From: Flavobacteriales bacterium
GTDB lineage: Bacteria > Bacteroidota > Bacteroidia > Palsa-965
Length of the DNA stretch: 35,271 nucleotides
Reading direction: 5' to 3'
NCBI GenBank assembly: GCA_040377305.1
Contig: JBEIPA010000041.1
Coordinates: 1 to 35,271, forward strand
Below the pieces are notes generated by a model. That model searched no databases. It was given only the letters and a program-made list of their open reading frames with translations, and had not been told where the DNA came from. The translations under genes were made by a program, and so were the position numbers. Below are positions 161-34,844 of the stretch, in pieces; the first letter of the stretch is position 1; every line of letters begins with the position of its first letter.

Positions 161-1537
161 ATGCCATTAACTATTACCACTTTTAATATTCAGACGTTTG
201 GGATGACACGTTGCGACAACATAGATCGCATTAGAGCTGTTTCCCGAACCATTTGTGAGCTAAATCCACGTCCCGATATTCTTTGTCTGATTGAAATCAC
301 CGCGAGCGATTTTGATGAGGTAAACTGGGTTTGCATCTCGCTGCGCGTTTGGATTGCCAAGACCTATCTCGAACTGGGACGCACAGAAACTAAATACAAT
401 TTCATTCATACATTTCACAATGGTTTTGAAACGTACGTATATTTCTATAATCCCGATACGGTAAATCCATTGGTTCTTGAAAGTGGTATAAAGGAATTAT
501 ATACCATCGAATCGGGGCAAAAAGACTGGTATCCGTTGCTCGATACTTTGAAATTCAAAAAAGTATCGAAAACCGATACCAAGGCCAATCAAAGTTACTG
601 GCACAGGCTCGATAATTATTTCCCATTGCTTCATTTTAATAATCGAGGAACCTGTCGTTCGCTTGGATTGGGACTATTTGAATATAACAATAAGGAAATT
701 GGCGTATTGGTTTGGCACAACAAGGCCGGCAATGGAAGTATCTCTTATGGTTATATGCAATTGTTAGCCGGATCGGATCTTTGCAAAGCAGGGAAACTAA
801 CATTTAAAGACGAGAACAATAACAAAAAAACACTTGACAATTTAGTGCTGACTGCCGACTTCAACGTTGATTTAGTTCAAGCCAGTCAATACATTAACAA
901 CCCTTATGATTCGTATACGGATATGACAATAGCGGTTAAAGGAAATTCTGCGCTGAGCTATCTGAACGAATACAGTTTCAATCGTTTTTATCCCGATCCG
1001 GACAAGGTCTTGATTCATGCGTTTGACAATTCTTTATTCTATTCAAAAGACTTTACCATTGATCGGGCCTTCATCAATCCATTGGTGAGCAACCTCAAGG
1101 GGCAACGGGATTATGTGATTAAATTTTTAAACAACAGCGAGTTTATCAACAATGACGACGAAGAAGAACTTACCGATAAAGAAGACTTGCTGAACCATTC
1201 TTTTGCCAATAGCCTGGAAGGGATTTTAATTAAGTACAAAGGCCCGATGTACAATAAACAAAAGCGGGAAACAATAATTCTTGATTTTATGGAATGGCGG
1301 GCGAAGCTCCGTAAAAACGGGTATGCACCACTTCTGACATCGAAAGAAATTCTTGGCGATCGTTTTATTTCTTTTTTCGCCGAAGCATATAGCATTTATG
1401 TCGGCACAACAGGGTTTCGTAGTCACAGCTACCCCCGGATATGTGGGGATTTTGGTAGCGTAACAGATGGCGATGCGGTTTTCCTCCTGCGAAAATTTGT
1501 TAGTGATCATTTACCCGTAACCCTCATTCTTAAATAA
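161..1537 (+). CDS. endonuclease/exonuclease/phosphatase (EEP, DNase I-like) family protein
   Basis: EEP catalytic motifs in the expected order: N-terminal TFNIQTFG, LCLIEI, LTADFN (GDFN-like), AFDN, C-terminal SDHLPV; no signal peptide. Confidence 0.85.
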   Translation: MPLTITTFNIQTFGMTRCDNIDRIRAVSRTICELNPRPDILCLIEITASDFDEVNWVCISLRVWIAKTYLELGRTETKYNFIHTFHNGFETYVYFYNPDTVNPLVLESGIKELYTIESGQKDWYPLLDTLKFKKVSKTDTKANQSYWHRLDNYFPLLHFNNRGTCRSLGLGLFEYNNKEIGVLVWHNKAGNGSISYGYMQLLAGSDLCKAGKLTFKDENNNKKTLDNLVLTADFNVDLVQASQYINNPYDSYTDMTIAVKGNSALSYLNEYSFNRFYPDPDKVLIHAFDNSLFYSKDFTIDRAFINPLVSNLKGQRDYVIKFLNNSEFINNDDEEELTDKEDLLNHSFANSLEGILIKYKGPMYNKQKRETIILDFMEWRAKLRKNGYAPLLTSKEILGDRFISFFAEAYSIYVGTTGFRSHSYPRICGDFGSVTDGDAVFLLRKFVSDHLPVTLILK

Positions 1538-1546
1538 GCAAGGCAG

Positions 1547-4500
1547 ATGAACGAAACCTTATATCAGCTCATTCGCAGTTGCTGGACTTCTGATGGCAAC
1601 TTCTCATTAGGCGCAGCGCAACTTACCGCCTCTCCGGCAAGGACAGTTCTTGCAAAACATTTTCCAGGCGAAACGCTTCTGCTTACAGGCGCAACAATGC
1701 CTGTATTGGAAAACGGATTTGTAGTAATTCAGGAAGCGACTTGCGTTTCCAAACTGCTCCAATTCAATTCGGCAAAAGTCACTGCACGTTTTTATGTCGA
1801 TGCTGCAAACAATACGCACTTTGATTTAACGACAACAGATCAGGCCTTAACTTTTCGTTTCAATGAAAGTTTTCCTGCTATAAAAGACCATGCCAATTGG
1901 GGCGGATTAACATTAACGCAAGCCACACTTCGGTTAGATTCCACCTTACTTACCAATACCGTCTGTCGCGATTTGGAACGCATGTATGCACCCAAACGAT
2001 TTCCGGAAACATCTGAAAGTCGTGTTGTAAAAGGATGGAAAATTTCCGGCTTACCGGGATTGCCCGAAGGCTGGTCATGGATTTACGATTTGCTGGGAAA
2101 CCGCTCCCGATTTCGCATCGAAGGCCCCTTGGAAATACTGGAAGGTAAGCCCCGTTTTTTGCTGGCAACACCAATGTACGAACCCGTAGCCATCGGCCAC
2201 CTGAGACCGGCCTTTGCTTTCGAAATGATTGGCTGGCTGGCAGAATATGGTTTGCCCGAAGGAGAAATTACACTATCCAATTTTAGTTATCGCTTTCGCG
2301 CGCAACTCACTCCTCCTATTGGAACACAACCGTTAACGCTATTTGCCAAGTGGGGACTATCAACACCAGATCAATTGCAGTTTACCATCGATGCACAGCT
2401 TGATCTCGATGGCGCAATTCAAACACTCGATTCTTTTTTCAATCTACCCCCCGAACAAGGATTAAGAACATTAATCCCAACCCAGAATTTTCCGGCTGTC
2501 AACACGATCAAATTAAAAACGATTGATTTTGATATTTCCTTATCGCCCTTCCGGCTGCAACGCTTAACCGCAAGGCTGGGGATGGATGAAAGTGCAAGCC
2601 AGGTTATTTTCCCTGAACTCGTAACAGCCAAACAATTTGAACTCGTCGCTGATTTGTGGCCCGGAACTGCCGGCTCTCCCAGAATGAAACTGAATGCCAG
2701 TTGTGGTATTGTACTCCATACGATGAGTCAACCCATACGCCTCAATTCGCGAATTGGTCTTCCATCCTTGAATTACAGTATCGGATTAGATCCCGTTCAA
2801 ACATTCAATATCTCCGGTTTTGTACATTCTCTTTTTCCTTCACTTGGTAATTTGCCCGCCGTATGGTGCGATACATTATCCTGCGCAGGAAAAATATATC
2901 CGCCTGAACTGCTTTTTGAATCTGCTTTTGAATCCGATATAGAGCTCGATTGGCTGTCGCTCAAAATTCGTTCGTTTGGTCTTTCTTTTAGCGCACGACG
3001 TACCGGCGATGAAAATATTATTGACGCAGAAGCATTTGTTGCCGCAACCCTTGCCGGCCAGTTTGATGTTATTTTGCATGGTTCCATTTCACGTGATCAG
3101 CTCAATGTATCCGGCACTATTTCTACTTCCGAAAAACTGCGGCTTCCTCAAATCCTTCCCGCAGGCATTCGCCTTCCCGATTATTTCAATACCTGGGAAT
3201 TTGAAAAAGGCTCGCTCGAAGTGCAGCGAGGAACAACCAACCGCGTGAAGTTTTCTTTGAAGGGAAATGTTATGCTGGATTTTGGTTCGATCGGAAATAT
3301 TGCAGCCACCTCGCTCGATGTAACGATTCAAAAAGAAGAAGGAAAAGACTGGTCAGTTAAGATTGAAACAAGCGGCTCGATCAAAGTCTTTGCCATTACT
3401 GATCAGGGGCCGGTAAACTGGCTCGTCGATTTAGCAGGTACAGTAACCATCAATGCCAGTTCACTTTCCAACTGGAGCATGGTCTTTGCCGCCAATGAGG
3501 GAAGCGGAAGGATCGGGCCGGTTCCATTGCCTGTTCCGAAACGAATTGAAGGTATTAACGTTACACCATCAAACGTTACTGTTTATCCCAAAAGCGTAAG
3601 TATTTCGATGGAAAACGGGAACTGGAAATTTGATACAAAAAGTATTTTCAAATTAGACACGTTTGCTTTTTTGCAAAACTTGATTCCTGAAGCAGGAACA
3701 GAAGCGCATTTAATTATTCAAAAACTGGAAGGTGTTTATTCAGCATCACTTGAATTAAAAAACCTGATTGGATTTACTATCCCAATCAATATCCCCGAGC
3801 GCCAAAATATGCCCGCCATTAATCTGGGCAATACGCGCTTTGAATTGACAAAGGCCAGCATTGCCGTTTCCAATCGCTTGGGCCTAACCTTTAGCGCCGA
3901 AACAAGCTGGTTCTTGCCCGAATACATGAATGAATTATTTGGCATTGTAGGAAGACCCGAAGACCACAATCCAAAGTTTCGTTTTTTTAAAACATACAAA
4001 CCCGCAGGGCAAGTTCCCACAGATGCATTAACGCTGAAGTTTCAACTGGGGCTTGCTACAAACGGGCAACCGTCGGGAAGTGTTACGCTTAATGCGCTTC
4101 CGATCAATCTTATTCAGACCGATGGCGACAAATTTGTTTTGAGTTTTGGCCCGGCAACAGATCCCGGCAAGTATGGAAAAATCAAATTTGCCAAGCCCAT
4201 ACTCGCTTACAATGCGGTGAAGGGTTTTGAAATGGAACTTGATTTTGAAATCGAAAAAGATCCGGCTATTCCGTTGAAGCCACTGATTGATTTACTGAAA
4301 AATGCAAAGCTCGACGCCATTGCCAATCTGCTTCCCGATCCACTACCAATCCCGATTTCAGATCCGCCACGCTTTTTTGAAAACGGAGCATTTAACTGGA
4401 CCTTGCTGGAAGCCTTAGTTAAAAAGTGCTGGCCCAATGACACCGAATTGTTTCCGAAAATGAAAGCCTTGCTCGAACCGATTGCTCATCGCTTTGAACA

Positions 4501-7351
4501 ATTGCCCGATACTTTGAAAAACTATTTGCAACCTCCGGGGATTCGCGGACTGAAGTTCAAACTCACCGCATCGCCGACCGGAAATGTAGAACTTGGTTTT
4601 GAAATGAAACAGGATCCCGGTGTAAAACCGGAAGATCCATCGGAGATGAAACGCAGCGCACAGATATTGTTGATTCCCGGACTTCCGCTGGTGTTCTTCG
4701 GCCTGCGTTTGCGTAAATTCCATTTCGGAGAATTGTTTGGAGGGCAATTGTTCACCACGCTTATAGATGCCGATATTGATGTGTTTGATATGCCCTCGTT
4801 GATTGCTTCACTCGTTGATAATCCGGATGTGAAGTATTACGTTGGCGATTCGAAAAAATTCAAACGCACGATTCAACTCTACGATTTGCGTACGTTTATT
4901 GTTTGGCAAACACAAATACCGATTTTCATTCCTGCATTTTACCGGCATGTTGGTATCGACTATTATGGATTAGGCGATGTGCGTTTTCAATCGGGTTTTG
5001 GATTTCCGGAACCGGAATTTGATCTGGTCAAACTGGGAGAATTAATAAAAGACCTTGTAACCTTTGCACGTGACCCTGCGGCGCCTATGCCCGAAAACGC
5101 GGACTACCGCCCAATGGATCTTGCATTCAAAATGGGGCCCTTGTATCTGGAAACCGGCGCATGGATGGGGAAAAAAGTGATTGGCTGGAAAACGCCGCTC
5201 ACTCCGCCGGGTGGAATTACACTCAGCAGTTTGCTGGCCAAAGTACTCAACACCATCAAGTTTTTCAGTGTGAATAAATTCATCACCAGCATTCCGTTTG
5301 AAAACAGGCATGCAGAAGGTGCATTGGCGAGCGAATTTCTGGGCATGAGTCTGGGTGGTAAATTTTTGTTGTCAACGCCTTACGAATTTGTCAATACAGA
5401 AGCAGGGCGCTGGAATCTTTTGCCGGAACAAACCACGCAACTGATGAGCGTATTGCCAACTGGCGTAACAAAAGATACGCCGGGTGTTGTACTTTTCCTG
5501 CGCGGTGAATGGACATCTACATTTGGTTCATTGCACACTTCTTTCGGTTTGATCGCCATTGACAGTAAACGTTTTGCTATCGGATTCCGGTTTGATGGAA
5601 CACTGGCCAGTTCCATTCAGATTAATTCAAACGCATTCGTTACGATCAATCCACCCGAAACACCTTTTGCGTTTTCGGGAACGAGCAAGGCGGTGTTGAA
5701 ATATGCCGGCATGGAATTTTTCAACGGATTCATCACCGCTTCGGGCAATCACCGGCGTTTCGATTTTTCAGGGCAATTGAAGTTAACTGAACCCGGTCAA
5801 ACCTTCAACATCAATGGCAATGCAGCGGTAGCCGGCCATTTTGATCAGAATTCATTTTCTATTTCGGGCGGAGCCAACGTTTCATTTTTGATTTTCCAGG
5901 GAAGCGGTTCGTTTAAAGTAGAAGGTGTTTCAACTGTTTTAGCCAAAGGAACCTTAAAATTAAATATCCCCGGAATACTTGTTTTAGATAGCACTTTCGA
6001 TTTATCACCAACGGAATTTACGCTGCGTACATCATCAAATTTGTTTAACGTTTTCCCAACGACGATCGAAGCGGTGATGAATAAACCCGCACAAACCATT
6101 GCCTTTACGCTGGAATCACAGCCGCTCAATAATTTGTTTGGTTTTTACTTGTCGTTCAATGCGCGGTTTGGTTCGAACGCCGAACAAACGGGTACGTTTA
6201 AAATCAAATTAGTTGGTCAGGAATTGGTGAATGGTACTTGTAAACTTCAGGATGCCAATACGTTTAAGATTGGAGGAACATTAACGCTTGGTTTACTTAA
6301 CTTTAGTGTCAACGGAACTTTTTCCTCTTCCGGATTTTCAATAGAAGGAAGTACATCGTTTGCAAGCATTGCCAGCATTGGCGTAAGCATCACCAATCAG
6401 GGCATTACGTTTTGGGTTGAAGCATTTGGTTTACCAAGAAGCAATACGGCTTTGAAATCGTGCAACGACACGCTTTACCTCTGCAGTTCAACAGGGAATG
6501 CGAAATTTTATATTGATCTCAAAAACGCGCTTAACTCCCGCGCGAAAGACTGCCCCTGCGGACTCAAAAGGTTTGTGCCATGTCCGTATCCGGAAAAGGC
6601 CGAGAACTTCCTGTATGTAACTTACCTTGTAAATGACTTGTTTACTGCAAAGAAACAGGGCAAGGGCATTTTGAGCCGAAGCCATAACAATCACAAGCAC
6701 CATTCAACGGTAAGAGTGGTGAATGCAGCGCAGAAATCGTTCTCGATTGAAGTTCGTCGCCATGGCCATCACAAGGATATATTCAGCGAGATGTTAGACT
6801 TTATGGAAGATCGTTTAGGCTCGCACTTCGCTTTTCTCATAGCGAGATACATCGGCAATGTTAATGGAGCTGCTATTGTTGTCCGGGAAACAACCATCCA
6901 TCAAATGCATAATGGGCAAGTTACTATTGTCGTTTCCTTCCCTTCGGCCATTGAGCATTTTCAACGCATTGAAACTACATTAAGTTTCGCCAATCCAAGA
7001 CATGCCAGCGATTTGATTGCAGATGAAATGATGCGGTATTTTTACGAAAACGAATGGCCCGATCAGCAGAAGCTGCTTCGAAAAACCAGAAAGAAAACTG
7101 CAGTAAAAAAAGTAACTGTTCTAAAAGCGAATACGAAGAAAACGATTGCCCTGAAACGTGTTGCTAAAAAAGTAACGACTAAAAAAGCGGCATCGAAAAA
7201 GCCTGCTGAAAGAAAGCCCGTTGCGAAAAAAGTAATCGTTAAAAAAACAGACTCTCAAAAACCTGCCGGGACTGGAAGGAAAACAGTATCGAAGAAAGCC
7301 GCTGGTAAAAAGACGATTGCGAAAAAGCAAAAGAGAAGAAAAAATTCTTAA
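1547..7351 (+). CDS. very large hypothetical protein (1934 aa), beta-strand rich, with a Lys/Ala-rich histone H1-like C-terminal tail
   Basis: Uninterrupted 5.8-kb ORF 9 nt after the EEP gene; alternating hydrophobic/Gly-Ser-Thr strands; tail such as KKVTTKKAASKKPAERKPVAKK. Confidence 0.85.
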   Translation: MNETLYQLIRSCWTSDGNFSLGAAQLTASPARTVLAKHFPGETLLLTGATMPVLENGFVVIQEATCVSKLLQFNSAKVTARFYVDAANNTHFDLTTTDQALTFRFNESFPAIKDHANWGGLTLTQATLRLDSTLLTNTVCRDLERMYAPKRFPETSESRVVKGWKISGLPGLPEGWSWIYDLLGNRSRFRIEGPLEILEGKPRFLLATPMYEPVAIGHLRPAFAFEMIGWLAEYGLPEGEITLSNFSYRFRAQLTPPIGTQPLTLFAKWGLSTPDQLQFTIDAQLDLDGAIQTLDSFFNLPPEQGLRTLIPTQNFPAVNTIKLKTIDFDISLSPFRLQRLTARLGMDESASQVIFPELVTAKQFELVADLWPGTAGSPRMKLNASCGIVLHTMSQPIRLNSRIGLPSLNYSIGLDPVQTFNISGFVHSLFPSLGNLPAVWCDTLSCAGKIYPPELLFESAFESDIELDWLSLKIRSFGLSFSARRTGDENIIDAEAFVAATLAGQFDVILHGSISRDQLNVSGTISTSEKLRLPQILPAGIRLPDYFNTWEFEKGSLEVQRGTTNRVKFSLKGNVMLDFGSIGNIAATSLDVTIQKEEGKDWSVKIETSGSIKVFAITDQGPVNWLVDLAGTVTINASSLSNWSMVFAANEGSGRIGPVPLPVPKRIEGINVTPSNVTVYPKSVSISMENGNWKFDTKSIFKLDTFAFLQNLIPEAGTEAHLIIQKLEGVYSASLELKNLIGFTIPINIPERQNMPAINLGNTRFELTKASIAVSNRLGLTFSAETSWFLPEYMNELFGIVGRPEDHNPKFRFFKTYKPAGQVPTDALTLKFQLGLATNGQPSGSVTLNALPINLIQTDGDKFVLSFGPATDPGKYGKIKFAKPILAYNAVKGFEMELDFEIEKDPAIPLKPLIDLLKNAKLDAIANLLPDPLPIPISDPPRFFENGAFNWTLLEALVKKCWPNDTELFPKMKALLEPIAHRFEQLPDTLKNYLQPPGIRGLKFKLTASPTGNVELGFEMKQDPGVKPEDPSEMKRSAQILLIPGLPLVFFGLRLRKFHFGELFGGQLFTTLIDADIDVFDMPSLIASLVDNPDVKYYVGDSKKFKRTIQLYDLRTFIVWQTQIPIFIPAFYRHVGIDYYGLGDVRFQSGFGFPEPEFDLVKLGELIKDLVTFARDPAAPMPENADYRPMDLAFKMGPLYLETGAWMGKKVIGWKTPLTPPGGITLSSLLAKVLNTIKFFSVNKFITSIPFENRHAEGALASEFLGMSLGGKFLLSTPYEFVNTEAGRWNLLPEQTTQLMSVLPTGVTKDTPGVVLFLRGEWTSTFGSLHTSFGLIAIDSKRFAIGFRFDGTLASSIQINSNAFVTINPPETPFAFSGTSKAVLKYAGMEFFNGFITASGNHRRFDFSGQLKLTEPGQTFNINGNAAVAGHFDQNSFSISGGANVSFLIFQGSGSFKVEGVSTVLAKGTLKLNIPGILVLDSTFDLSPTEFTLRTSSNLFNVFPTTIEAVMNKPAQTIAFTLESQPLNNLFGFYLSFNARFGSNAEQTGTFKIKLVGQELVNGTCKLQDANTFKIGGTLTLGLLNFSVNGTFSSSGFSIEGSTSFASIASIGVSITNQGITFWVEAFGLPRSNTALKSCNDTLYLCSSTGNAKFYIDLKNALNSRAKDCPCGLKRFVPCPYPEKAENFLYVTYLVNDLFTAKKQGKGILSRSHNNHKHHSTVRVVNAAQKSFSIEVRRHGHHKDIFSEMLDFMEDRLGSHFAFLIARYIGNVNGAAIVVRETTIHQMHNGQVTIVVSFPSAIEHFQRIETTLSFANPRHASDLIADEMMRYFYENEWPDQQKLLRKTRKKTAVKKVTVLKANTKKTIALKRVAKKVTTKKAASKKPAERKPVAKKVIVKKTDSQKPAGTGRKTVSKKAAGKKTIAKKQKRRKNS

Positions 7352-7485: not shown

Positions 7486-7620
7486 CTTTATAACGGTTTG
7501 CGGATTGGCGTTGGTGGGCTTTTGAAACCGCAAACTATCTACCAGCGCCAAAGTTTATTAATTGCTCAAATGTTTGTATTCGTACTGTCCGACAACTAAC
7601 GCAAAGCCCGTGTTACCTGC
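7486..7620 (-). repeat. attC-like recombination site, long variant (~135 bp), closing the cassette array
   Basis: Minus strand reads GCAGGTAAC...GTTATAAAG; shares the TAACG-TTTGCGGATTGGCG end with the four 90-bp repeats; lies just after the stop of 7627..8268. Confidence 0.7.
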
Positions 7621-7626
7621 TGTGCT

Positions 7627-8268
7627 TTATTTAGGTGTGCTAAGATTATTGTCAACAGTCAACTTAAATTCAATTGTAGAATTCAAATCTACCCGTCTGT
7701 ACACATTATTCTCTGTAAGTTCTACAAACTGTAATGTCATTCCTTGCCATGCAATTTGATTTTCACTACTTGCATGGACGTGTATTTTATTTGAAAATTC
7801 ATCGCTACTATTTAAAATTATCGGATTCCAATCGGATCTAAAATCAACTTTAGACGCTACAAATAAAGCAGCATCTTTTGAAATCTCCATGAAATCTAAT
7901 TCACCATAAGTATTGTGTTTAATGTTAACGGTGTTTCTGAGAAAACGAACCAATCCATCTTTACTTCTTTCAAACATTGAACCGGCATAAATACTACATT
8001 GTCTTCTTTTGTCAATAAGTTCTCCATGTTTCAATGAGTCAGCTAAGTCAGAAAATATTTTATATGGTTCTGATTTCTGAAGTAAGTCTTTAGGTTTCAA
8101 ACCATGTGAATTTTCTGGAAAATGTTTAATAGAAACAGCTAGCGAAGATGCCTTGTTAGTGAAGTCGGAGATGGATGTGTTTATTGAAAATGGAAAACTT
8201 AATTGTCTATTAAGAGTTTCCCATGGTTTAATAATGTCGTTTAGAAATTTGATTTTCTCTTCTGTCAT
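7627..8268 (-). CDS. cassette-borne hypothetical protein (possibly HEPN-like)
   Basis: 213-aa AT-rich ORF bounded by core boxes; FSDLADSLKHG loosely resembles HEPN-type helix-end motifs. Confidence 0.75.
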   Translation of the reverse strand: MTEEKIKFLNDIIKPWETLNRQLSFPFSINTSISDFTNKASSLAVSIKHFPENSHGLKPKDLLQKSEPYKIFSDLADSLKHGELIDKRRQCSIYAGSMFERSKDGLVRFLRNTVNIKHNTYGELDFMEISKDAALFVASKVDFRSDWNPIILNSSDEFSNKIHVHASSENQIAWQGMTLQFVELTENNVYRRVDLNSTIEFKLTVDNNLSTPK

Positions 8269-8305
8269 CGGTCAGATTTTATTAATGTTCGGTCGTCAGA
8301 GCATT

Positions 8306-8395
8306 GCAGGTAACGTTTTGCGGATTGGCGCCGCGCGCTTTTCCTTCTAATAAATATACGTGAAAAGCGGGTGGTGCCAATGCGCTGTTAGCGGC
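8306..8395 (-). repeat. attC-like 90-bp hairpin repeat
   Basis: + strand GCAGGTAAC-gttttgcggattggcgccgcgcgcttttcc...gaaaagcgggtggtgccaatgcgct-GTTAGCGGC. Confidence 0.85.
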
Positions 8396-8891
8396 TGGCT
8401 TTCGTTGAGGGGAATTGCCAAAGTATTTCATGAACCAATCCTTGATAATAATTTTCTGAAGCCAAATATGAACTGACCACAAGAATAAACAAATTTATTG
8501 CGGCCAACGTCAAGGTGAGTTTTTGCCAGGGACGCTTTAAGTAATATTTGAGTACTAGGAAATTTATCGCGGCCAACACAAACACTAAACAAACTGAAAT
8601 CAATGCGTACTTCAAAAAATAGTGTTGAGCTTGGTTTCTGTGAGCAGCAAGTGACTCTTCTAGCGTCGATTTTATTCCGACTTCGGGCCTAACAATAAGC
8701 GCGAGAGTTAATATCATTCCCCAAGAAACCAGAAGAGTGATGCTATTCAAACTGTACAATGCAGTAAGTTTTAGGGCAATATACTTTTTTCTTAGTGTAT
8801 TGTATATTAATGCTACTGCCAACAGAATCCAAGTGGTGAAGGCAATATATTGTCCAATGAATAATAGCGTTGAGATTATTTCGTGTGCCAT
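8388..8891 (-). CDS. cassette-borne integral membrane protein (~4 TM, 167 aa)
   Basis: Start moved to ATG 8891 (MAHEII) because the ORF-track extension lies inside the repeat; the TAA stop is embedded in the GCCGCTAAC box. Confidence 0.8.
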   Translation of the reverse strand: MAHEIISTLLFIGQYIAFTTWILLAVALIYNTLRKKYIALKLTALYSLNSITLLVSWGMILTLALIVRPEVGIKSTLEESLAAHRNQAQHYFLKYALISVCLVFVLAAINFLVLKYYLKRPWQKLTLTLAAINLFILVVSSYLASENYYQGLVHEILWQFPSTKASR

Positions 8892-8900
8892 TGGTTGCTT

Positions 8901-8990
8901 GCCCCTAACGTTTTGCGGACTGGCGCCGCGCGCTTTTCCTTCAAATAAATATACGTGAAAAGCGCGTGGTGCCAATGTGCTGCTAGATGA
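8901..8990 (-). repeat. attC-like 90-bp hairpin repeat
   Basis: + strand GCCCCTAAC...GCTAGATGA; interior near-identical to 8306-8395. Confidence 0.85.
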
Positions 8991-8996
8991 CGTTGA

Positions 8997-9688
8997 TCAG
9001 AGTGAATCGTGGATTTCTTCTCCATTCCGATATTCCTTTTGGAATTCAATTTCCCATCTGGACCATAGTTGATAAATACTCCATTGGCTTCGCCATTCAA
9101 ATATTCGTTAGTCGCACGAATCTTCCCATTTTCAGAATAGAAAGTTTTCGTCCCGTTTGGTCTACCATCTGCGTATGTGGCTTGAACAGAAAGATTGCCG
9201 TTTTCGAAGTATGAGCGATATGCTCCATCATATTCTCCAGAAGAATTATAGTGCAGTTCCGTGCGGTCAAAGTTTACACCATTTGCAAGGAAATTGACTT
9301 TGTAACCATTGTCATCTTTGATTATTTCAATGCGATAATCATGTGAATTCCATCTGTTCGTTTTCCAGTTACCAACCTTAAAGGTGATGCTATCAGAAAG
9401 CGAGATGAGGAATCGATTCGGCCCATATTCATAACCGACGGATGCAATTTTATTGCCGGACTCAATTATTTTGCTTTGACCTTCTTCGGTATTCCAGATT
9501 ACATCGACACTTTTCGGATCAACACCTGAACAGACTAATTCTACATTGTTGTTGCTGAAAATGTAACTTGAAACGCGACCTAAAAAGGAATCGGAATTAC
9601 GGAATACAAACTTTAAGAGAAGAAGTCCTAGCAAGACCAGTGTTGCCTGGGTAATTAGTATACGTCTTGCTTTCACACGGTTTTTCAA
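8997..9688 (-). CDS. cassette-borne membrane-anchored MORN-variant repeat (YwqK-like) protein, probably frameshifted near the 3' end
   Basis: N-terminal TM; repeats YFENGNL..Y.DG..NG, YSENGKI..EY.NG..NG. One extra A in the run at 9037-9040 gives KKEYRNGEEIHDSL* ending at 8997; as sequenced it reads through to 8876. Confidence 0.75.
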
Positions 9689-9690
9689 TG

Positions 9691-9780
9691 ACCTCTAACG
9701 TTTTGCGGATTGGCGCTGCGCGCTTTTCCTTCTAATAAATATACGTGAAAAGCGCGTGGAGCCAATGCGCTGTGTGCGTA
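9691..9780 (-). repeat. attC-like 90-bp hairpin repeat
   Basis: + strand ACCTCTAAC...GTGTGCGTA; same interior as the other copies. Confidence 0.85.
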
Positions 9781-9782
9781 GA

Positions 9783-10367
9783 CTACGAAGCAGGATAATT
9801 ATTCTTGTCGAGATGTTTAGGGTCCAATTCGTTTGACCAGAGTATACTCCCTTCATAATCCATTCCCACTTTGATTGGATGTGAAGGAAACTCTGAAGAT
9901 GACCAAATCACATCTTCGCCATTAGCTCCTTTAGTGATAGAACGTTTTACTGTGGGTTTCCAGCGTAACATTATAAATCTGTCAGTACTGGTATGAGGAG
10001 GCAAATTAATATCGCATGGCCCATCCGCATAACAATCAAATCGGTTTTGCAATTCGAAATTCACTGTGTCATCTACGTGGAAGGAATTCTCATACGAACA
10101 GATCCAGCTCGAGAACTTTATGGTGTCATTCGTGGGGTTGGTTAACGTAACGCAAACGTGCAAAATATATGACGAATCAGACATGCTATAAAGATCTGGA
10201 TCATTTAAGCTGTCGGATAGTTGCACGATGGATGGCAGATTCCAATTTACACCTCCCCATTTCGCGGTTAAGACCAATGAATTGGATTCTGATTCAGAAG
10301 CAGCATTATGATTACAACCAAGAGCGATGAATGAAAATAATATCGCTGTTATCGACAAGAGTCTCAT
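9783..10367 (-). CDS. cassette-borne lipoprotein of unknown function
   Basis: Signal peptide with lipobox IALGC; stop 2 nt from the repeat. Confidence 0.8.
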   Translation of the reverse strand: MRLLSITAILFSFIALGCNHNAASESESNSLVLTAKWGGVNWNLPSIVQLSDSLNDPDLYSMSDSSYILHVCVTLTNPTNDTIKFSSWICSYENSFHVDDTVNFELQNRFDCYADGPCDINLPPHTSTDRFIMLRWKPTVKRSITKGANGEDVIWSSSEFPSHPIKVGMDYEGSILWSNELDPKHLDKNNYPAS

Positions 10368-10374
10368 AATGGTT

Positions 10375-10463
10375 TACGCTAACGTTTGCGGATTGGCGCC
10401 GTGCGCTTTTCCTTCTAATAAATATACGTGAAAAGCGCGTGGAGCCAATGCGCTGTTAGTGGC
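10375..10463 (-). repeat. attC-like 89-bp hairpin repeat
   Basis: + strand TACGCTAAC...GTTAGTGGC; same interior as the other copies. Confidence 0.85.
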
Positions 10464-10468
10464 TGCAC

Positions 10469-10945
10469 TTACTCACTTTTGTTTTCAAACGTGTATTCTG
10501 AGAATGTACGAGCGAAAAAGTCTGGCAGCAATTCTTTATATGGTTTAACCCAGCTGTTGAGAACAAAATTGTCCAAGTCTTCAATGAGGGCGGCACTTAG
10601 GTTCACATTTGCCTTCTCACAAAATGCTCGGAAAATAGTGTATGCGACAATTGTCGGATTGGTGTCGATAAAATCGCGGCCCTCAATACTGTTTATTTGT
10701 ACTCGCCAGTTATTTTTGGAATATGAGAATCCGTACTCCAGTCCGTGTCTTGCAGCAATTTTCCAGGAATCAAATCCATTTTGTGGAACCGAATCAATAT
10801 AACCTTGGCTCATGCCCCCCTCGCCATGATAGCTTTCTACGATCTCATTTTTGTTCGACGTGGAATTTTCTACCGTTATGTCCACAACAGCAACTGATAC
10901 TATCCCATTTTTGACTTTGTACCATTTATATGAATTGCTGTCCAT
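10469..10945 (-). CDS. first cassette: hypothetical protein, possibly ribosomal protein S5 domain 2-like / EF-G domain IV-like fold
   Basis: 158-aa ORF flanked by GTTAGTGGC / GCCACTAAC; VQINSIEGRDFIDTNPTIVAYTIFRAF echoes the EF-G domain IV pattern. Confidence 0.7.
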   Translation of the reverse strand: MDSNSYKWYKVKNGIVSVAVVDITVENSTSNKNEIVESYHGEGGMSQGYIDSVPQNGFDSWKIAARHGLEYGFSYSKNNWRVQINSIEGRDFIDTNPTIVAYTIFRAFCEKANVNLSAALIEDLDNFVLNSWVKPYKELLPDFFARTFSEYTFENKSE

Positions 10946-10958
10946 GATTTACTGTGTT

Positions 10959-11068
10959 GCCACTAACTAGTTTATTTGCGCCACTTTTATTCGCTTATAC
11001 GCCCAATTTGGATGGCTTTACGAATGTTCATGGCGGATAATTGCAACTGAAATTTAGCAAATAAACTA
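10959..11068 (-). other. putative attI-like leader of the cassette array
   Basis: Has the GTT core box but not the 90-bp hairpin; 12-bp inverted repeat TAGTTTATTTGC (10968-10979) / GCAAATAAACTA (11057-11068). Confidence 0.5.
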
Positions 11069-11177: not shown

Positions 11178-14100
11178 CTACTTCGTGATCTCCTCGTACT
11201 TACTTCCCTTCGGCTTCTTCACTTTCTTTTTCTTCTTCTTGCCGTTCTTGTCATCAACCGGAGGTGCCGGAGTAGGTTCAGGAGCTTTGATTTCTTTCAC
11301 GGGTGCAGGTGGAAGAACATTTCCTTGTGCGTCGACAACGGAAACGGTGTAACCGAGTTTCACGAGACGATTGTACAAGAGTGCGCTGTCGCCAACGACA
11401 GTGATGGTCATGTTTTCATCGCCGAGCCACTTGTGTGCAAGACTGTCGATGCCGGGCTTAGTCATGGACTGAAGAATCTGCAATTGCGTTTGCGTGTAAT
11501 TGTCGGGAAGATTGTAGTCGACAATATTCTTCATGAAGAACAATTTCTGATACGGATCTTCATAACGCAAGGCTTCTTTCTGAGAGATGGCGCGCTTCAT
11601 GTAATCGAGCTCGTCTTGCTTCACACCGTTTTTCTCGTATGCAGAAATGATGCTCATGAATTCGGCAACAGCGCTGTCCGAAGATGGAGCACGCACACCC
11701 GCTGATGCAGAGAACGCACCTGTGTATGAATTCGCAGCGAATCCGGAACGGGCACCATAAGTCCAGCCGTGTTCTTCACGCAAACTTAAGTTGATGCGCG
11801 AGTTGAAGTGTCCACCGAGTGAATAGTTCATCAAAGATGCGCGGTAGTATTCACCGGTTGCATCGTAAGGCATTGCCATGCGACCAATGCGTATTTCAGA
11901 CTGTGCTGCTGCTTTCTTGTCGTACAGGAAAATGGTTGTTGGTCCCGGAGTTGCTTTTGATTGCAGCTCGTTCGCAACTTTCAGCGCAACGCCTGTCGAT
12001 TTCCAATTCTGGAGGAACATGGCTCTCTTCATGATATCGTCTTTCTTGAGATCAGATACAACGACGAGACGAGCAATATCCGGAGAGAACATTTTCTTGT
12101 GATACGCTTTCACATCCTCCAGTGTAATTTTCTCTGCTGTTTCTTTGGTTCCGCTCATCGGAGTCGCCATGATATGACCTTCACCGAATAGCATCTTCGA
12201 GAAAATGAAATCGGCCATTGCAGCTGGTTGGGTAGACATATTCGCAATGTTCTCGAGCTGACGTTGCTTGACCAGATCAAACTCTTCCGCATCAAATTTC
12301 GGATGGAATATTTTCTGCTCTACCAACGCAAGCGTAGAATCCAGGTTACGCGTCATGCAAGTGATGTAAATCTGAATTTCATCGGCAGTGAGGTTGATAG
12401 AAATTTCACTGCCGAGCAATTCTGTTTTCTCTTCGACACGCTCTGCAGAATATTTTTCGGTAGACATATCGAGCATGCTTACCAGCATCTGTGCTGTTCC
12501 GGATTTCGCAACATCTTCCTGTCTATGACCGGCAGAAATACTCAACAACATGTAGGTGCGTGGAATCTCTTTATTCTCCGTACCGATGTATTTCAGCCCG
12601 TTTGCAAAAACACCGCGCCACATGGAAGGTGGAACTGGTGTTGGAGTAGAACCAGGAGTTGGTTGAACACCACGATTGAACGAATCAGAAGCGCGACGCA
12701 TGGTGAGACCTTGATATTCTCCACCTTCAGGAGCACCAACGCGGTGTTCAGGAATAGTGAAGTCATCTGCTTTTGCGATGAGATTGCTCATTCCTTTTGG
12801 AACAACGCTGAGTACAACAGAGTATTTTCCTTTGATGTACTTGTTGTAAACACGCATCACATCTTCTTTCGTCACTGCTTTGTAGCGATCCATATCTTTC
12901 GCAACCATATTTGGATTGCCAAAGAATGTGCTGTATGCAGCGAGTGTTGAACCTTTGCCCTGAACAGAAGTCAATCCGTCAATGAAGAGGCCCTCGATAT
13001 ACAACTTGAACCGTGTCATGTCGTCGTCTGATACGCCTTGTTTTTCGAATTCGACAAACGAGGCTCTCATGAGACTGTCGGCTTCGCGAAGATTGTGACC
13101 CGGATACATTCTGATCATACACATCGTTTGTCCGGATAACTCCTGACTCGAATTGAACATACTTGCAAACTGGGCAATTCCTGATTCAACGAATGCTTTG
13201 TAGAATACAGAACCTTTTCCCTGAGAGATGATTGTAGTCAATGCGTCGAGTGCGGCTTCATCGGGATGCATTGTTTCTACCGCAGGCCAGGAAGCAACGA
13301 GTTGTGGAAAACGAATATTGTCTTCGTACGAAATGTAGCGGTTGCGATCAAGTGTAGCAGGCATTTTCGCCATTGACTTCACTTCAGGTCCGCGCGGAAT
13401 GCTACCGAAATATTTTTCTGCCAGAGCGATAACCTGAGCCGTTGTTACGTCACCTGATACGGTTAGCGTAGCATTATTTGGTCCATACCAACGCAGGAAG
13501 AAATTTTTCAGATCCTGTACACCAACACGATCGAGATCGGCAACGTAACCGATAGTTGTCCACGAGTAAGGATGTCCAACAGGATACATTGCTTCTCCGA
13601 TTTTCTCCCACACCAATCCGTAAGGAGCATTTTCGTAACGCTGACCACGCTCGTTTTTCACCGTAGCGCGTTGCACTTCGAATTTTTTCTGAGTCACTGA
13701 ATCGAGCAGGAATCCCATACGATCAGCTTCAAGCCAAAGTGCAAGCTCGAGGTAATTTGAAGGAACTGTTTCGAAATAATTGGTGCGATCGCCATTGGTA
13801 GTTCCGTTGAGGTTACCGCCAGCTTCGTTGATGAGTTTGAAGTGTTGTTCATCGGCAACGTGTTCTGATCCCTGGAACATCATGTGTTCGAAGAAGTGAG
13901 CGAAACCGGAACGACCTTCCTGTTCACGGGCAGAACCAACGTGATACGTTACGTCTACGTACACAACAGGATCTGAATGATCTTCGTGTACTACAATGTT
14001 GAGTCCGTTTGGAAGCGTGTATTTCTTGTAAGGAATTACAAGCTTGCCATTGCCGTTTGTGGTAACGGTTTCAACCAGCTTTGCTTTAACAGGAGCTACA

Positions 14101-14186
14101 GGAGCGATCTGCGCGTTTGCCAATCCGGAGAAAGCCAGAATGGATCCGAGAACAAACGTGGGTACTAAGTGCTTGATTTTCTTCAT
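11178..14186 (-). CDS. M16 family (pitrilysin/PqqL-like) zinc metallopeptidase, exported
   Basis: Inverted zinc motif HFFEH in GFAHFFEHMMFQGS, NGTTNGDRTNY, second-half LREEHGWTYG; signal peptide from MKKIKH (ATG 14186). Confidence 0.93.
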   Translation of the reverse strand: MKKIKHLVPTFVLGSILAFSGLANAQIAPVAPVKAKLVETVTTNGNGKLVIPYKKYTLPNGLNIVVHEDHSDPVVYVDVTYHVGSAREQEGRSGFAHFFEHMMFQGSEHVADEQHFKLINEAGGNLNGTTNGDRTNYFETVPSNYLELALWLEADRMGFLLDSVTQKKFEVQRATVKNERGQRYENAPYGLVWEKIGEAMYPVGHPYSWTTIGYVADLDRVGVQDLKNFFLRWYGPNNATLTVSGDVTTAQVIALAEKYFGSIPRGPEVKSMAKMPATLDRNRYISYEDNIRFPQLVASWPAVETMHPDEAALDALTTIISQGKGSVFYKAFVESGIAQFASMFNSSQELSGQTMCMIRMYPGHNLREADSLMRASFVEFEKQGVSDDDMTRFKLYIEGLFIDGLTSVQGKGSTLAAYSTFFGNPNMVAKDMDRYKAVTKEDVMRVYNKYIKGKYSVVLSVVPKGMSNLIAKADDFTIPEHRVGAPEGGEYQGLTMRRASDSFNRGVQPTPGSTPTPVPPSMWRGVFANGLKYIGTENKEIPRTYMLLSISAGHRQEDVAKSGTAQMLVSMLDMSTEKYSAERVEEKTELLGSEISINLTADEIQIYITCMTRNLDSTLALVEQKIFHPKFDAEEFDLVKQRQLENIANMSTQPAAMADFIFSKMLFGEGHIMATPMSGTKETAEKITLEDVKAYHKKMFSPDIARLVVVSDLKKDDIMKRAMFLQNWKSTGVALKVANELQSKATPGPTTIFLYDKKAAAQSEIRIGRMAMPYDATGEYYRASLMNYSLGGHFNSRINLSLREEHGWTYGARSGFAANSYTGAFSASAGVRAPSSDSAVAEFMSIISAYEKNGVKQDELDYMKRAISQKEALRYEDPYQKLFFMKNIVDYNLPDNYTQTQLQILQSMTKPGIDSLAHKWLGDENMTITVVGDSALLYNRLVKLGYTVSVVDAQGNVLPPAPVKEIKAPEPTPAPPVDDKNGKKKKKKVKKPKGSKYEEITK

Positions 14187-14292
14187 GGTCAACAAATTTA
14201 GCAATATACCCCTGCGAAAACAGGTGAAAAAGGCTTTAAACAACATTAACGGTATGGGCGGTTTTTAGGGCTTATGAAGCAGTTAGAGTGCT

Positions 14293-14766: not shown

Positions 14767-14871
14767 GACAAAATTCAATTAGTCAATATGCGGATTAGTT
14801 GATTGGTTAATGCCGGGCGGTATTAATAATTCAGGAAAGCATGAACTAATTAACGTATTAACTAATCAACC

Positions 14872-14910
14872 AATAAAAATCCCCTGATGAAAGTCAGGGG
14901 ATTTTTTATT
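14872..14910. terminator. bidirectional intrinsic terminator
   Basis: aaaaatcccctga-tgaaag-tcaggggattttt between convergent genes. Confidence 0.85.
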
Positions 14911-14930
14911 GCGCGCTACTTCTGATCTGA

Positions 14931-15557
14931 TTAGTTCTCGTAAAATTCTACCTGTCCGGTTTCAACATTGTACATACCACCAACGAGTTCAACTTGTCCA
15001 GACTTAATCATTTCTGCAAGGATAGAACTCCGTTCGGTGATTGCATGCACCGTGCGATGAACGTTAATGTCTGCAACCTTTTCTACAAATACTGAATTCG
15101 ATGAGTTGCGATTTTGAGTTTCTGTTTTCTCATCGTCCACGGCTGGTCTGATCTTACTGAGAAGTGCTGTAAGATTGCCCATCTCAACATGATCACACGC
15201 ACCTTTTATCGCACCGCATTTGCTGTGTCCAAGCACAACAATGACTTTTGCTCCGGCAACTTTGCAGGCAAATTCCATGCTTCCAAGGATATCTTCATTG
15301 AGAACGTTGCCCGCAATTCGCACACTGAAAACATCACCGAGTCCCTGGTCAAAGATGAGCTCTGACGAAGTTCGTGAGTCGATGCAGCTCAGGATGATTG
15401 CAAAAGGATGCTGACCATCGGATGTTTCATTGACTTGCTGAAGCAAATTTCTGTTCGCTTTGAGGTTGTTCATGAAACGCACGTTCCCGTCTTTCAGAAT
15501 CTGTAAAGCTTGCGCAGGCGTTAGCTGACTTTGTGTTTCTTTCGATTGAGTTCTCAT
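14931..15557 (-). CDS. beta-class carbonic anhydrase
   Basis: Zinc motifs SCIDSR and GHSKCG; LGDVFSVRIAGN. Confidence 0.95.
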   Translation of the reverse strand: MRTQSKETQSQLTPAQALQILKDGNVRFMNNLKANRNLLQQVNETSDGQHPFAIILSCIDSRTSSELIFDQGLGDVFSVRIAGNVLNEDILGSMEFACKVAGAKVIVVLGHSKCGAIKGACDHVEMGNLTALLSKIRPAVDDEKTETQNRNSSNSVFVEKVADINVHRTVHAITERSSILAEMIKSGQVELVGGMYNVETGQVEFYEN

Positions 15558-15579
15558 TGTTGGGTTGATTTTAGTTAGG

Positions 15580-16473
15580 TTACATTAAGTAAAAATTGTC
15601 GGCCGGGTAAGGATCAGGGATATTCTTATTTGAAATCAATTGGCGCAAGTTGATTTCAATCGTTCGGGAGATCGCATTCATTGCGGTATCAGTGGGTTTA
15701 TTGGAAAATGGATCCTGCATGTGCGTCGCCGATTTCTCCAGTAGAAAAAACGCAGAAGAGATCAGAACAAGCAACGGGATTTCAAAATACCATTCCACGT
15801 TCCCCAGTGAAACAGCCAGTGTTACCACAAAAAGATAGATTGTGAAGTGCAGAAAACGGCTGTATGTTACAGGAAAGACAGTTGATTTGATCCGTTCTGC
15901 GCGACCCATTGAATCGCAAAACCGCACTAAAGTATTGTCGAGTTGTATGTGTGTAAACTGGTCAATGTGTTTATCGCGCTTCAGTTCTGCAAGGTCAGCG
16001 GCATGTAGCTTAAGCATGGCCAATGCTTTGTTGTTGTGTTTGCTTACCTCGTGTAAATCTTCTTCAGAAAGGAGATCCTTTGAACTACTCAAGGGGTCTA
16101 GTCCGCGGAGCTGAGCAGACAAGGTGTAGCACCAGGCAATTTGCCGATGCGCCATTTTGGATACCAATGTTTCTTTTCCGGCCGGAAGCAGTGTCTGCAG
16201 TTGCAGAACGAAACTTCTCGAATCGTTTACAATGCTGCCCCAGATCTTGCGCGCTTCCCACCAGCGTTCGTAGGATTGATTGAGTTTGAACGACAGGAGG
16301 ATTGAAATGGCTGTACCAATAAATGCCGGAATCGTAAGGGGCATCTCCGGAAACCAATCGGAATAAAGGTGTGTAATCAAATAGACTGCTGCTGTCATTA
16401 CCAGCGTAATCACCAGTTCGGACTTTACCTTACTGAATATGAAACTAGCCGGAATCTTTTTATTGAGAAGCAT
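15580..16473 (-). CDS. bestrophin (YneE-like) family ion channel
   Basis: SFKLNQSYERWWEARKIWG, ERIKSTVFP and QDPF motifs; start MLLNKK at 16473. Confidence 0.9.
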   Translation of the reverse strand: MLLNKKIPASFIFSKVKSELVITLVMTAAVYLITHLYSDWFPEMPLTIPAFIGTAISILLSFKLNQSYERWWEARKIWGSIVNDSRSFVLQLQTLLPAGKETLVSKMAHRQIAWCYTLSAQLRGLDPLSSSKDLLSEEDLHEVSKHNNKALAMLKLHAADLAELKRDKHIDQFTHIQLDNTLVRFCDSMGRAERIKSTVFPVTYSRFLHFTIYLFVVTLAVSLGNVEWYFEIPLLVLISSAFFLLEKSATHMQDPFSNKPTDTAMNAISRTIEINLRQLISNKNIPDPYPADNFYLM

Positions 16474-16489
16474 ATTTGTTGATTTAGGA

Positions 16490-16497
16490 CAAAGATA
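16490..16497 (-). promoter_or_regulatory. -7 promoter box (TATCTTTG on minus strand) for bestrophin/carbonic anhydrase
   Basis: CAAAGATA on + strand, 16 nt upstream of the ATG. Confidence 0.6.
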
Positions 16498-16515
16498 CAA
16501 ATACTTTCTAAAAAG

Positions 16516-16528
16516 ATAGTAATACTAT
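16516..16528. promoter_or_regulatory. candidate TetR operator palindrome ATAGTA-A-TACTAT
   Basis: Perfect 6-1-6 inverted repeat between the divergent promoters. Confidence 0.5.
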
Positions 16529-16588
16529 TATAGAAAATAATAATACCATAATAAATAGATATGATGCTTCTTTTTTGGATGAATTCGC

Positions 16589-16596
16589 TATTTTTG
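16589..16596 (+). promoter_or_regulatory. -7 promoter box TATTTTTG for the TetR gene
   Basis: TAnnTTTG 17 nt upstream of ATG 16614. Confidence 0.5.
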
Positions 16597-16613
16597 TGAA
16601 AACGTTAGGTTCA

Positions 16614-17285
16614 ATGGACTTTCAAGTAACATTTCGCGTAAACGAAAAGATGTATGTGAAAGACCCGGAGAGTTCGGAGATCGGTCGGGCAATTGTGAAG
16701 CATGGTATCGATCTTATTTACGAACTCGGTTTCGAAAGCTTTACATTTAAAAAGCTGGCGGTTGAAATCGAAACGACCGAGGCTACGATTTACCGGTACT
16801 TCGAAAACAAGCACAGGCTTCTGCTGTACATCCTCAATTGGTATTGGTCGTACATGGAGTTCCTGGTGATGTTTCGTCTGCAGAATGTAAAGGACACGCG
16901 TTCGCAGCTAAAGATTATTGTACATCTTCTGACACACGAGTTGCCGGAAAGTTCAGGAAGTCTTGACTACAACCGGAAGCATCTGAACCAGATTGTAATT
17001 TCCGAAAGCAGTAAGGCCTATTTGGTGAAGGATGTGAATGCGATCAATAAGGAGCAGGCATTCAAACCATACAAAGATCTTTGTGCAAAAATTGCAGAGG
17101 TGATTGGTGCACATGCGCCGAAGTACAAATTTCCGCGTTCGCTGAGCAGCATGTTAATTGAATCGGCGCACAGCCAACAGTTCTTCGCGTCACATTTGCC
17201 TCGCTTAACAGACGTTCAGTCGAAAAACCAGAGCGAATTCACCGCGCAGTTTCTGGAAGACCTGATGTTTCGGGTCTTGGGTTAA
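16614..17285 (+). CDS. TetR/AcrR family transcriptional regulator
   Basis: HTH GFESFTFKKLAVEIETTEATIYRYFENK; start MDFQV. Confidence 0.9.
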   Translation: MDFQVTFRVNEKMYVKDPESSEIGRAIVKHGIDLIYELGFESFTFKKLAVEIETTEATIYRYFENKHRLLLYILNWYWSYMEFLVMFRLQNVKDTRSQLKIIVHLLTHELPESSGSLDYNRKHLNQIVISESSKAYLVKDVNAINKEQAFKPYKDLCAKIAEVIGAHAPKYKFPRSLSSMLIESAHSQQFFASHLPRLTDVQSKNQSEFTAQFLEDLMFRVLG

Positions 17286-18271: not shown

Positions 18272-18424
18272 GGGATAAAGGTACGGATAACTGTAGCCGT
18301 TCACTGCACACGGATTTCCGCATATATGGGAATCTGATTGCACACCATTTGCTACAAAGTCTTTCTGTTTTACCTAGGGCGTCTTTATGGCACGAACATT
18401 TGATTATCAGTGGAAAAACACACT

Positions 18425-18931
18425 ATGGGAACTGAGTTCAAAAATCTTGAAGGTGGTCCGGCAGGTGAGCGGATCAAAATGTTAGCGGAAGCAACACGTA
18501 CGTGTGCGATGATCACACGACTCGATCAACGTCCATTTCACGTTCGACCAATGGGAATTCAGAAGGTGAATGATGACGGAGCCATTTACTTTTTCAGTCA
18601 TCGCGATTCGGATAAGAACGCTGACCTGAAAGTTTCGGATGAAATGCATTTGATATTCAGTAATGAATCAAAATCGGAATACCTCAGTCTGTATGGTCAT
18701 GCGAAAGTGTACCGCGATCAGACGGAGATTAATGAAATGTATTCGCTATTTGTGAATACGTGGTTTGACGGAAAAGAAGATCCGAACATCACCATCATCC
18801 GCTTCGAGCCAAAAGAAGGTCATTACTGGGATACAAAAAACGGAAAGTTTGTTGCGCTTGCGGGAATGGTATTCGGTGCGATCACCGGGAAGGAAACGGA
18901 CAATAGTGTAGAAGGTGATTTGCGCACCTAG
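18425..18931 (+). CDS. pyridoxamine 5'-phosphate oxidase-like / general stress protein 26 family
   Basis: RPMGIQKV..DGAIYFFS, YLSLYG.A, WFDGKEDPNI..I.F.P..GHYWD. Confidence 0.85.
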   Translation: MGTEFKNLEGGPAGERIKMLAEATRTCAMITRLDQRPFHVRPMGIQKVNDDGAIYFFSHRDSDKNADLKVSDEMHLIFSNESKSEYLSLYGHAKVYRDQTEINEMYSLFVNTWFDGKEDPNITIIRFEPKEGHYWDTKNGKFVALAGMVFGAITGKETDNSVEGDLRT

Positions 18932-18933
18932 AA

Positions 18934-34795: not shown

Positions 34796-34844
34796 TTAGG
34801 CTTATCTCTTGAAATCCAATACAGAGACGTTAAATCTACCGGAG

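Follow-up and report, generated by a model that had tools for sequence, protein, structure and literature searches.

We analyzed a 35,271-nucleotide (nt) stretch of DNA from a Flavobacteriales bacterium (positions 1 to 35,271 of contig JBEIPA010000041.1, assembly GCA_040377305.1; hereafter the window), which is contig C12 of a 5.18-Mb genome in 60 contigs (G000; other C-numbers denote contigs of the same genome). At positions 7491-10967, five minus-strand open reading frames (ORFs) are separated by four repeats of 79-80 nt, measured from YAAC to GTTA, and one variant of 125 nt. This region is probably an integrase-less satellite array in which five gene cassettes stand behind their own attI-like docking site (the head, or dock), likely moved in trans by a tyrosine recombinase that is encoded on C19 and lacks the insertion specific to integron integrases (IntI). 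The array works like an integron served in trans, but its enzyme and sites fall outside the definitions of IntI and of the integron site attC, and it is therefore not a canonical integron. The features of the array and its upstream flank are as follows.

10964-11068, minus strand: orphan attI-like head (dock) of ~105 bp, with a predicted crossover at G10967/T10966, identified with the head hidden Markov model (HMM)
10469-10945, minus strand: cassette gene W1, 158 amino acids (aa), no family assigned; boxes 9/9; ATG 22 nt past the crossover
10380-10458, minus strand: attC-like hairpin R4, 79 nt, a 3-nt bulge variant, identified by repeat and folding
9783-10367, minus strand: cassette gene W2, 194 aa, no Pfam match, N-terminus lipoprotein-like by eye; boxes 7/9
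9696-9775, minus strand: attC-like hairpin R3, left core degenerate, identified by repeat and folding
8876-9688, minus strand: cassette gene W3, 270 aa, MORN_2-repeat protein (PF07661, E 7.7e-11), TTG start; boxes 6/9
8906-8985, minus strand: attC-like hairpin R2, left core degenerate, identified by repeat and folding
8388-8891, minus strand: cassette gene W4, 167-aa hydrophobic protein; boxes 8/9; stop codon within the left box
8311-8390, minus strand: attC-like hairpin R1, identified by repeat and folding
7627-8268, minus strand: cassette gene W5, 213 aa, 32% GC, no family assigned; boxes 9/9
7491-7615, minus strand: long-class attC-like hairpin R0, 125 nt, at the array end, identified with the long-site HMM; a relative occurs on C49
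11094-11128, minus strand: terminator-like hairpin 3' of the flanking M16 peptidase gene, setting the array apart from upstream transcription
11178-14246: flanking M16 peptidase gene, upstream of the array head

The five cassette genes are unrelated to one another, share one orientation, and have a GC content of 32-41%, compared with 45% for the genome. Each cassette contains a leader of 11-46 nt, and the short repeats R1-R4 are 90-95% identical to one another. The five pairs of core boxes described in a first-pass annotation, which had only the letters of the window at hand, were confirmed at their places with complementarity across each gene of 9, 7, 6, 8, and 9 of 9 from W1 to W5. At the variable bases 5-9, 22 of 25 positions matched across genes, the unique maximum of all 120 permutations (mean 13.4), whereas only 9 of 25 were paired inside a repeat, as that annotation had claimed. 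Its layout of five genes, each followed by a hairpin, also stands, except that the W3 frame reads through its own repeat R2. It had further noted that several boxes deviate from the GTTRRRY consensus; the deviation is real but was understated, since none of the six R' boxes in the window fits strictly. For nine further cassettes on C19 and C17, which were delimited by hand and include two that pair poorly, 34 of 45 variable positions were paired (p about 5e-5); cassettes from the decayed central part of C19, whose boxes are unrecognizable, were excluded. At 16 of 31 testable loci of relatives, the cassette that comes first behind the head paired 9/9, compared with a mean of 0.77 and a maximum of 4 for shuffled partners. 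The window and its relatives thus have cassettes with complementary core boxes and a G/TT crossover at their ends, a trait by which integrons are recognized.

The upstream-most box (10967) pairs 9/9 as first described, but it belongs to a distinct head, missed in the first-pass annotation, and not to a repeat. An 18-nt head core is identical in the window, in the integrase-linked C19 array, and in an orphan head on C57; the head of the C17 array has two mismatches to it. We collected 80 loci of homologous recombinases, nearly all labelled Bacteroidota, of which 73 had enough downstream sequence. A head-like motif ending 73-150 nt past the recombinase stop was detected at 62 of these 73 loci compared with 35 of 2227 control windows, using a pattern picked after these sequences were seen. 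When an HMM was built from the 62 integrase-proximal regions, none of them from G000, the window head was the top match in the genome (11062-10964, E 8.6e-8), the C19 head the second, and the C57 head the third (E 0.11). No integrase or recombinase remnant was found near the window head. The top match to an integrase-proximal model indicates that the window head is an attI-like dock with no integrase beside it. Judged by position and footprint, a dedicated attI-like site lies beside the enzyme and heads the array at 62/73 loci and on C19.

In an alignment of the window head with 31 heads of relatives, a nested inverted repeat of 12 pairs was 86% paired, compared with 55% in shuffles, and double changes were observed at all 12 pairs, although relatedness among the heads inflates such covariation counts. 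A two-palindrome structure was no better than shuffles, though it was ~2 columns out of register. The motif TAnnTTTG, which is the sigma-A -7 box (PMC9723704), occurred within 50 nt past the integrase stop at 35 of 62 loci compared with 228 of 9068 control windows (2.5%). The window head has a TAnnTTTG-like element with one mismatch at 11056. Such elements are candidates for a counterpart of the Pc promoter, which in integrons stands upstream of attI. At six of the 11 loci without a head motif (L017, L024, L049, L060, L064, and L072), a conserved ORF starts ~30 nt past the recombinase stop, and the head may lie further downstream. Elsewhere in G000, the 5' half of a head module precedes a long unrelated ORF (C49:45523-45574), and a solitary decayed long-class site without a paired cassette is located at C4:18770-18892. 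A 2-mismatch match to the head core at window position 30532 lies inside a gene and was treated as chance.

Box-to-box walking downstream of the relatives' integrases yielded 74 sites, 66 of them with 9/9 boxes. Among these 66, a one-sided 4-nt bulge on the R' arm was present in 45 and a 3-nt bulge in 3, and 18 fitted neither form. In the common geometry, YAAC-A stands on the left and the 4-nt bulge with C-GTTR on the right, and the stem follows. R1-R4 conform to this descriptor geometry, R4 as the 3-nt variant, and R0 was matched at E 3.9e-8 by an HMM that had been built on 52 long sites taken from other genomes. A strand-neutral descriptor detected 68 sites in 229 kb downstream of the relatives' integrases; the controls gave 3 sites with mirror geometry, 3 on the opposite strand, and none in 470 kb upstream. 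Of 38 loci where 2 kb or more was available past the enzyme on its downstream side, 28 had a hairpin site. In the whole genome, the strict descriptor gave 10 matches compared with 5 in the reversed-genome control, and was therefore not used alone for site counts. In canonical attC, the central spacer is unpaired on both sides, and the R''-L'' arm bears extrahelical bases (PMC2727003), whereas the common geometry here, shared by the window sites, has its bulge on the R' arm alone and no extrahelical base on the R'' arm.

Imperfect stem positions were G.T-compatible on the bottom strand in 116 cases and on the top strand in 33; when two fixed positions were omitted, the bias was 59 to 7. Folding energies likewise favored the bottom strand. 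The bias suggests that the bottom strand folds as DNA, and speaks against a hairpin in mRNA. R1-R4 each contain TTG-N19-TATATTTA, the reading of which follows a -33 spacing, and TAnnTTT[GA] was found in 20 of the 68 relatives' sites on the top strand compared with 2 on the bottom strand (loop-shuffled mean 8.3, maximum 17). These two motifs give a weak hint of promoters inside the repeats. Searches of the window against Rfam returned weak microRNA hairpin matches only, none at gathering score, and comparison of the repeat and head with phage and plasmid collections gave short chance matches only. The repeats do not match Flavo-1; the single Flavo-1 match lies upstream of an integrase, outside the array.

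A tyrosine recombinase co-occurring with the repeats, which the first-pass annotation had suggested looking for, was found on C19. Elsewhere in the genome, the short repeat occurs only on C17 (2 copies) and C19 (7 strong and 1 weak), and the copies on C12, C17, and C19 are restricted to gene ends in oriented arrays. The C19 array has the same repeat and the same 18-bp dock core as the window and begins ~90 nt past the stop of a co-oriented 293-aa tyrosine recombinase. This enzyme contains PF13495 (SAM_4) and PF00589 (Phage_integrase) with intact catalytic motifs. Its scores were below the cut-offs of the IntI models (TIGR02249, 212 bits < 265; NF011946, 134 < 435), and it reached 220.9 bits on NF040815 (cut-off 220). 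Compared with IntI2 and a Shewanella IntI from plasmid records, it shows ~30% identity and gaps of 28 and 12 residues. The IntI-specific insertion, another feature proposed for inspection, is missing, as indicated by these catalytic-domain gaps, a split match to PDB 2a3v, and the unmatched positions 182-238 of TIGR02249. From the alignment, the gaps would map to alpha-I2 and beta-4,5; the region of VchIntIA where the C19 enzyme is gapped contacts extrahelical bases (PMC3053210).

No IntI above cut-off was found in G000, in agreement with the earlier remark that the window holds none. The genome has 7 PF00589 matches, and separate XerC/D-like genes are present. In trees, the C19 enzyme family, IntI, and enzymes adjacent to IS91 were placed apart from XerC/D-like ones, with long branches that meet and an unreliable branching order; three rows of the first tree were truncated, and the second tree omitted or exchanged four rows. 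A single-sequence AlphaFold model of the recombinase was poor (predicted local distance difference test score 41) and was set aside. The genome contains at least three further docks or arrays that have no integrase, and the first cassettes of the orphan arrays on C17 and C49 pair 9/9. The integrase-less C49 array (14802-19255, L015) consists of this cassette followed by a 3-kb two-gene cassette with boxes of 8/9. The two genes match the candidate defence system PDC-M62A/B (an ATPase and its partner).

We next compared relatives. Of 150 other genomes sampled across the phylum, 18 have a recombinase homologue at E <= 1e-70, 15 of them at >=56% identity; at E <= 1e-60, 7 of 26 congeners have one (among the 7 is G012, on which nothing here relies). 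The lineage-specific system with a recombinase in trans that was first proposed thus gains a candidate enzyme on C19, but it is phylum-wide rather than confined to one lineage. At the M16 flank, 18 congeners have the M16 gene; in all 13 of these that were examined, no head, repeat, or cassettes were found in the 1.8-14 kb read downstream of it, and the array is therefore an acquisition of this lineage. In the congener G013, the same head core as on C57 follows the same HAD-like gene with a different first box. Four cassettes follow this orphan head, paired 8, 9, 8, and 9 of 9, and one of its repeats is 90-94% identical to R1-R4; the first cassette on C57 runs past the contig end. G013 is 82% complete, and its missing integrase match was given no weight. 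The window adds to this that docks can occur at a distance from the enzyme, where they apparently undergo turnover. A further orphan head, in the congener G015 (L126, C117:11549-11613), is followed by a short ORF.

By analogy with integron biology, a cassette would be excised as a circle, and in it the pair of boxes and the hairpin would again make up a single site. The bottom strand of the DNA would then fold and recombine at G/TT with the dock, new cassettes would enter at the head, and the C19 enzyme would act in trans on the window dock. The 4-nt bulge and the wobble pattern may serve as the strand-choice signal in place of extrahelical bases, which would explain an enzyme without the IntI insertion. 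A promoter could be supplied by the head, and perhaps by each repeat. The whole would amount to a distributed integron analogue, with one enzyme and several docks.

Several observations weigh against the satellite-array reading. No recombination, circle, or transcript was seen in the data, which are the assembled contigs of one study, and the evidence for turnover comes from comparisons between species. The hairpin descriptor and the head pattern were devised on the same loci in which they were counted. By a simple ORF rule, the boxes of 15 of the 31 relatives' first cassettes fell short of 8/9. Two of the five window cassettes have damaged cores (7/9 and 6/9), which together with the W3 read-through means that some of the array is in decay; from head to tail of the window array, no age gradient appears in box quality. 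G015 (96% complete) has a head but no homologous recombinase at E <= 1e-60, from which it follows that heads can outlast the enzyme. Finally, the insertion is described as "not fully conserved" in an integron-like subgroup yet essential for integron function (PMC8138268), so that single-strand chemistry by the C19 enzyme stays hypothetical.

The degenerate W2 and W3 cores and the W3 read-through would also suit an array of the same system that was parted from its integrase, or lost it, and is now inert, resembling a fragment of an attC-site cluster that has no integron-integrase (CALIN). Loss of intI, or rearrangement, is a recognized CALIN origin (PMC8618304), and no circles were seen in contig-only data. 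We consider this fossil unlikely, because the window head core is identical to the integrase-linked one, its first cassette pairs 9/9 as do those of the orphan arrays on C17 and C49, the surroundings of the head are free of integrase remnants, and two species have different cassettes behind the orphan head of the HAD locus. This last observation also bears on fixed gene content in relatives, which the first-pass annotation had named as a reason to abandon its proposal. Its cassette-array reading is supported: the anatomy is statistically solid, and gene content at such sites varies between relatives.

There is a small chance that the cassettes, though real, owe their movement to a different enzyme, such as host XerC/D, another tyrosine recombinase, or a visiting canonical IntI, with the C19 recombinase as a bystander. 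The 7 PF00589 matches leave room for this, as do heads in genomes without a detected homologue and a C19 enzyme that lacks the IntI insertion and shares its catalytic-domain spacing with recombinases beside IS91 transposases. It is difficult to reconcile, however, with a head motif that follows the stop of this very enzyme family at 62/73 loci, 73-150 nt away, compared with 35/2227 control windows, and with a hairpin site at 28/38 loci. No IntI above cut-off exists in the genome, which also speaks against an ordinary integron with a canonical IntI, as once considered. Least probable is that the repeats are elements of the repetitive extragenic palindromic (REP) or miniature inverted-repeat transposable element (MITE) type, or RNA elements such as terminators or leaders, gathered between foreign genes with incidental pairing. 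They do fold as hairpins and trigger terminator-like pattern matches; but pairing runs across genes and not within repeats, wobble favors the non-transcribed strand, no Rfam family reaches gathering score, and copies occur only at gene ends in oriented arrays, where repeats independent of gene ends had been named as a refutation. The REP, MITE, or RNA reading is already largely refuted.

Regarding the cassette genes, only W3 has a Pfam family (MORN_2); membrane-family matches of the W4 protein were all sub-threshold, PADLOC gave weak matches only, and ESM Atlas look-ups returned hypothetical clusters only (W1 and W5). A W1 homologue (53%) in another Bacteroidetes metagenome-assembled genome (MAG) is likewise placed after an attI-like motif, and a W5 homologue (74%) in a Saprospiraceae MAG has other neighbors and decayed boxes. 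A contig from run X1, which may represent the source sample, links the head and the first cassette to the M16 gene without differences, so that this junction is no artefact of assembly; several of the repeat junctions go unbridged in the run. The X1 joints fall in repeat copies and are hence uninformative on circles, and runs X2 and X3 yielded no alignments. At window positions 161-7351, genes for a 458-aa protein with a faint endonuclease/phosphatase match and a 1934-aa protein with a lysine/alanine-rich histone-like tail converge on the array end; neither was present in those M16 flanks of congeners that were examined. A tandem repeat of 108 bp extends to the contig end (34803-35271), with inverted partial copies at 34691-34801; C2 and C35 have near-full copies, and 12 other contigs have partial ones. 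It is unrelated to the cassette repeats and possibly belongs to a family like REP or the bacterial interspersed mosaic elements.

The window system shares with integrons, above all with sedentary chromosomal ones, promoterless single-gene cassettes in one orientation, the G/TT footprint, the AAC/GTT core, a conserved G after AAC on the bottom strand, and a SAM_4 plus Phage_integrase recombinase; bottom-strand folding, which energies and wobble favor, would be a further likeness. It differs in a recombinase without the IntI insertion and with only about 30% identity to two IntIs, in a 4-nt bulge on the R' arm with no extrahelical base on the R'' arm, in 0/6 GTTRRRY boxes, and in a covarying hairpin in the dock and several docks per genome. 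Treponema-type integrons also have the dock next to the 3' end of the enzyme; there, intI is co-oriented, and integrons have one attI each (PMC3607928). Complete integrons are reported to be nearly absent from Bacteroidetes, with one in Salinibacter (PMC9024848). CALINs, defined by at least two canonical attC sites and no neighboring intI, resemble the window array as cassette arrays without a neighboring integrase, and an integrase that acts from another place in the genome has been proposed as one of their origins (PMC8618304). The window array has five attC-like sites and no integrase nearby, but its sites and enzyme are non-canonical, and it keeps a recognizable dedicated dock. The best NCBIfam and PDB matches of the C19 enzyme are IS91-associated recombinases (NF040815) and archaeal XerA. 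Two IS91-adjacent enzymes have identical catalytic-motif spacing, but no IS91 transposase gene is among the C19 neighbors, and the genome has its own XerC/D-like genes. At L115 and L116, tyrosine recombinases stand directly beside IS91-family transposase genes; they are about 39-41% identical to the C19 enzyme, with which they have in common a catalytic spacing of 90 residues that lacks the insertion.

No description of this system was found in PMC open-licence papers or bioRxiv, a search that covered neither subscription papers nor bioRxiv supplements; only fragments were found, namely integration in Riemerella and "xerD" beside tet(X). In Riemerella anatipestifer, homology-independent, site-specific integration has been reported for a gene together with 27 bp of upstream sequence and an attC-like stem-loop of 140 bp (PMC13148043). 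This shares with the window a gene with a short leader and a 3' stem-loop, and the passage names no enzyme, dock, or array; by this likeness, we infer that the Riemerella integration may be the same system. Passages on "xerD" beside tet(X) in Flavobacteriaceae and Acinetobacter, where its role was untested, likewise name no enzyme, dock, or array (PMC7473080 and PMC11194056). On plasmid pHH1107 (L110:8001-10330), tet(X3) is flanked by a TnpF recombinase on one side and by a truncated attC-like site of the long class on the other, a cassette-like anatomy. TnpF is 51% identical to the C19 enzyme over the annotated coding sequence, the first half of a long-class site lies 3' of tet(X3) (E 3e-4 in a small search), and the DNA before tet(X3) gave no match to the head HMM. 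Phage P12002L attC1 was not integrated by IntI1 (PMC9892861). Its bulge is of a related kind but stands, with respect to its genes, on the other arm, so that this site is no clean test. Hairpins between its methyltransferase-cluster genes (L128:29960-30090, 38005-38125, and 38805-38960) have a 3-nt bulge on the arm opposite relative to the coding strand, and no recombinase homologue was found in the phage.

Taken together, we are somewhat inclined to regard the system as an undescribed distributed integron analogue in Bacteroidota. A small Xer-like recombinase without the IntI insertion would read folded single-stranded sites via a 4-nt bulge, not extrahelical bases, and would serve several self-contained, promoter-bearing docks across the chromosome, including that of the window. 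Such a system would account for the capture of defence genes and of resistance genes such as tet(X) in the phylum, and it may be similar to integron integrases in their state before the insertion. It calls into question the rule that cassette recombination needs the IntI insertion and extrahelical bases, and it offers a testable enzyme and site for the unexplained Riemerella integration and the recurring "xerD" beside tet(X). If active, it would be a large unannotated gene-capture route in a major phylum, with homologues in 18 of 150 genomes and arrays that follow them.

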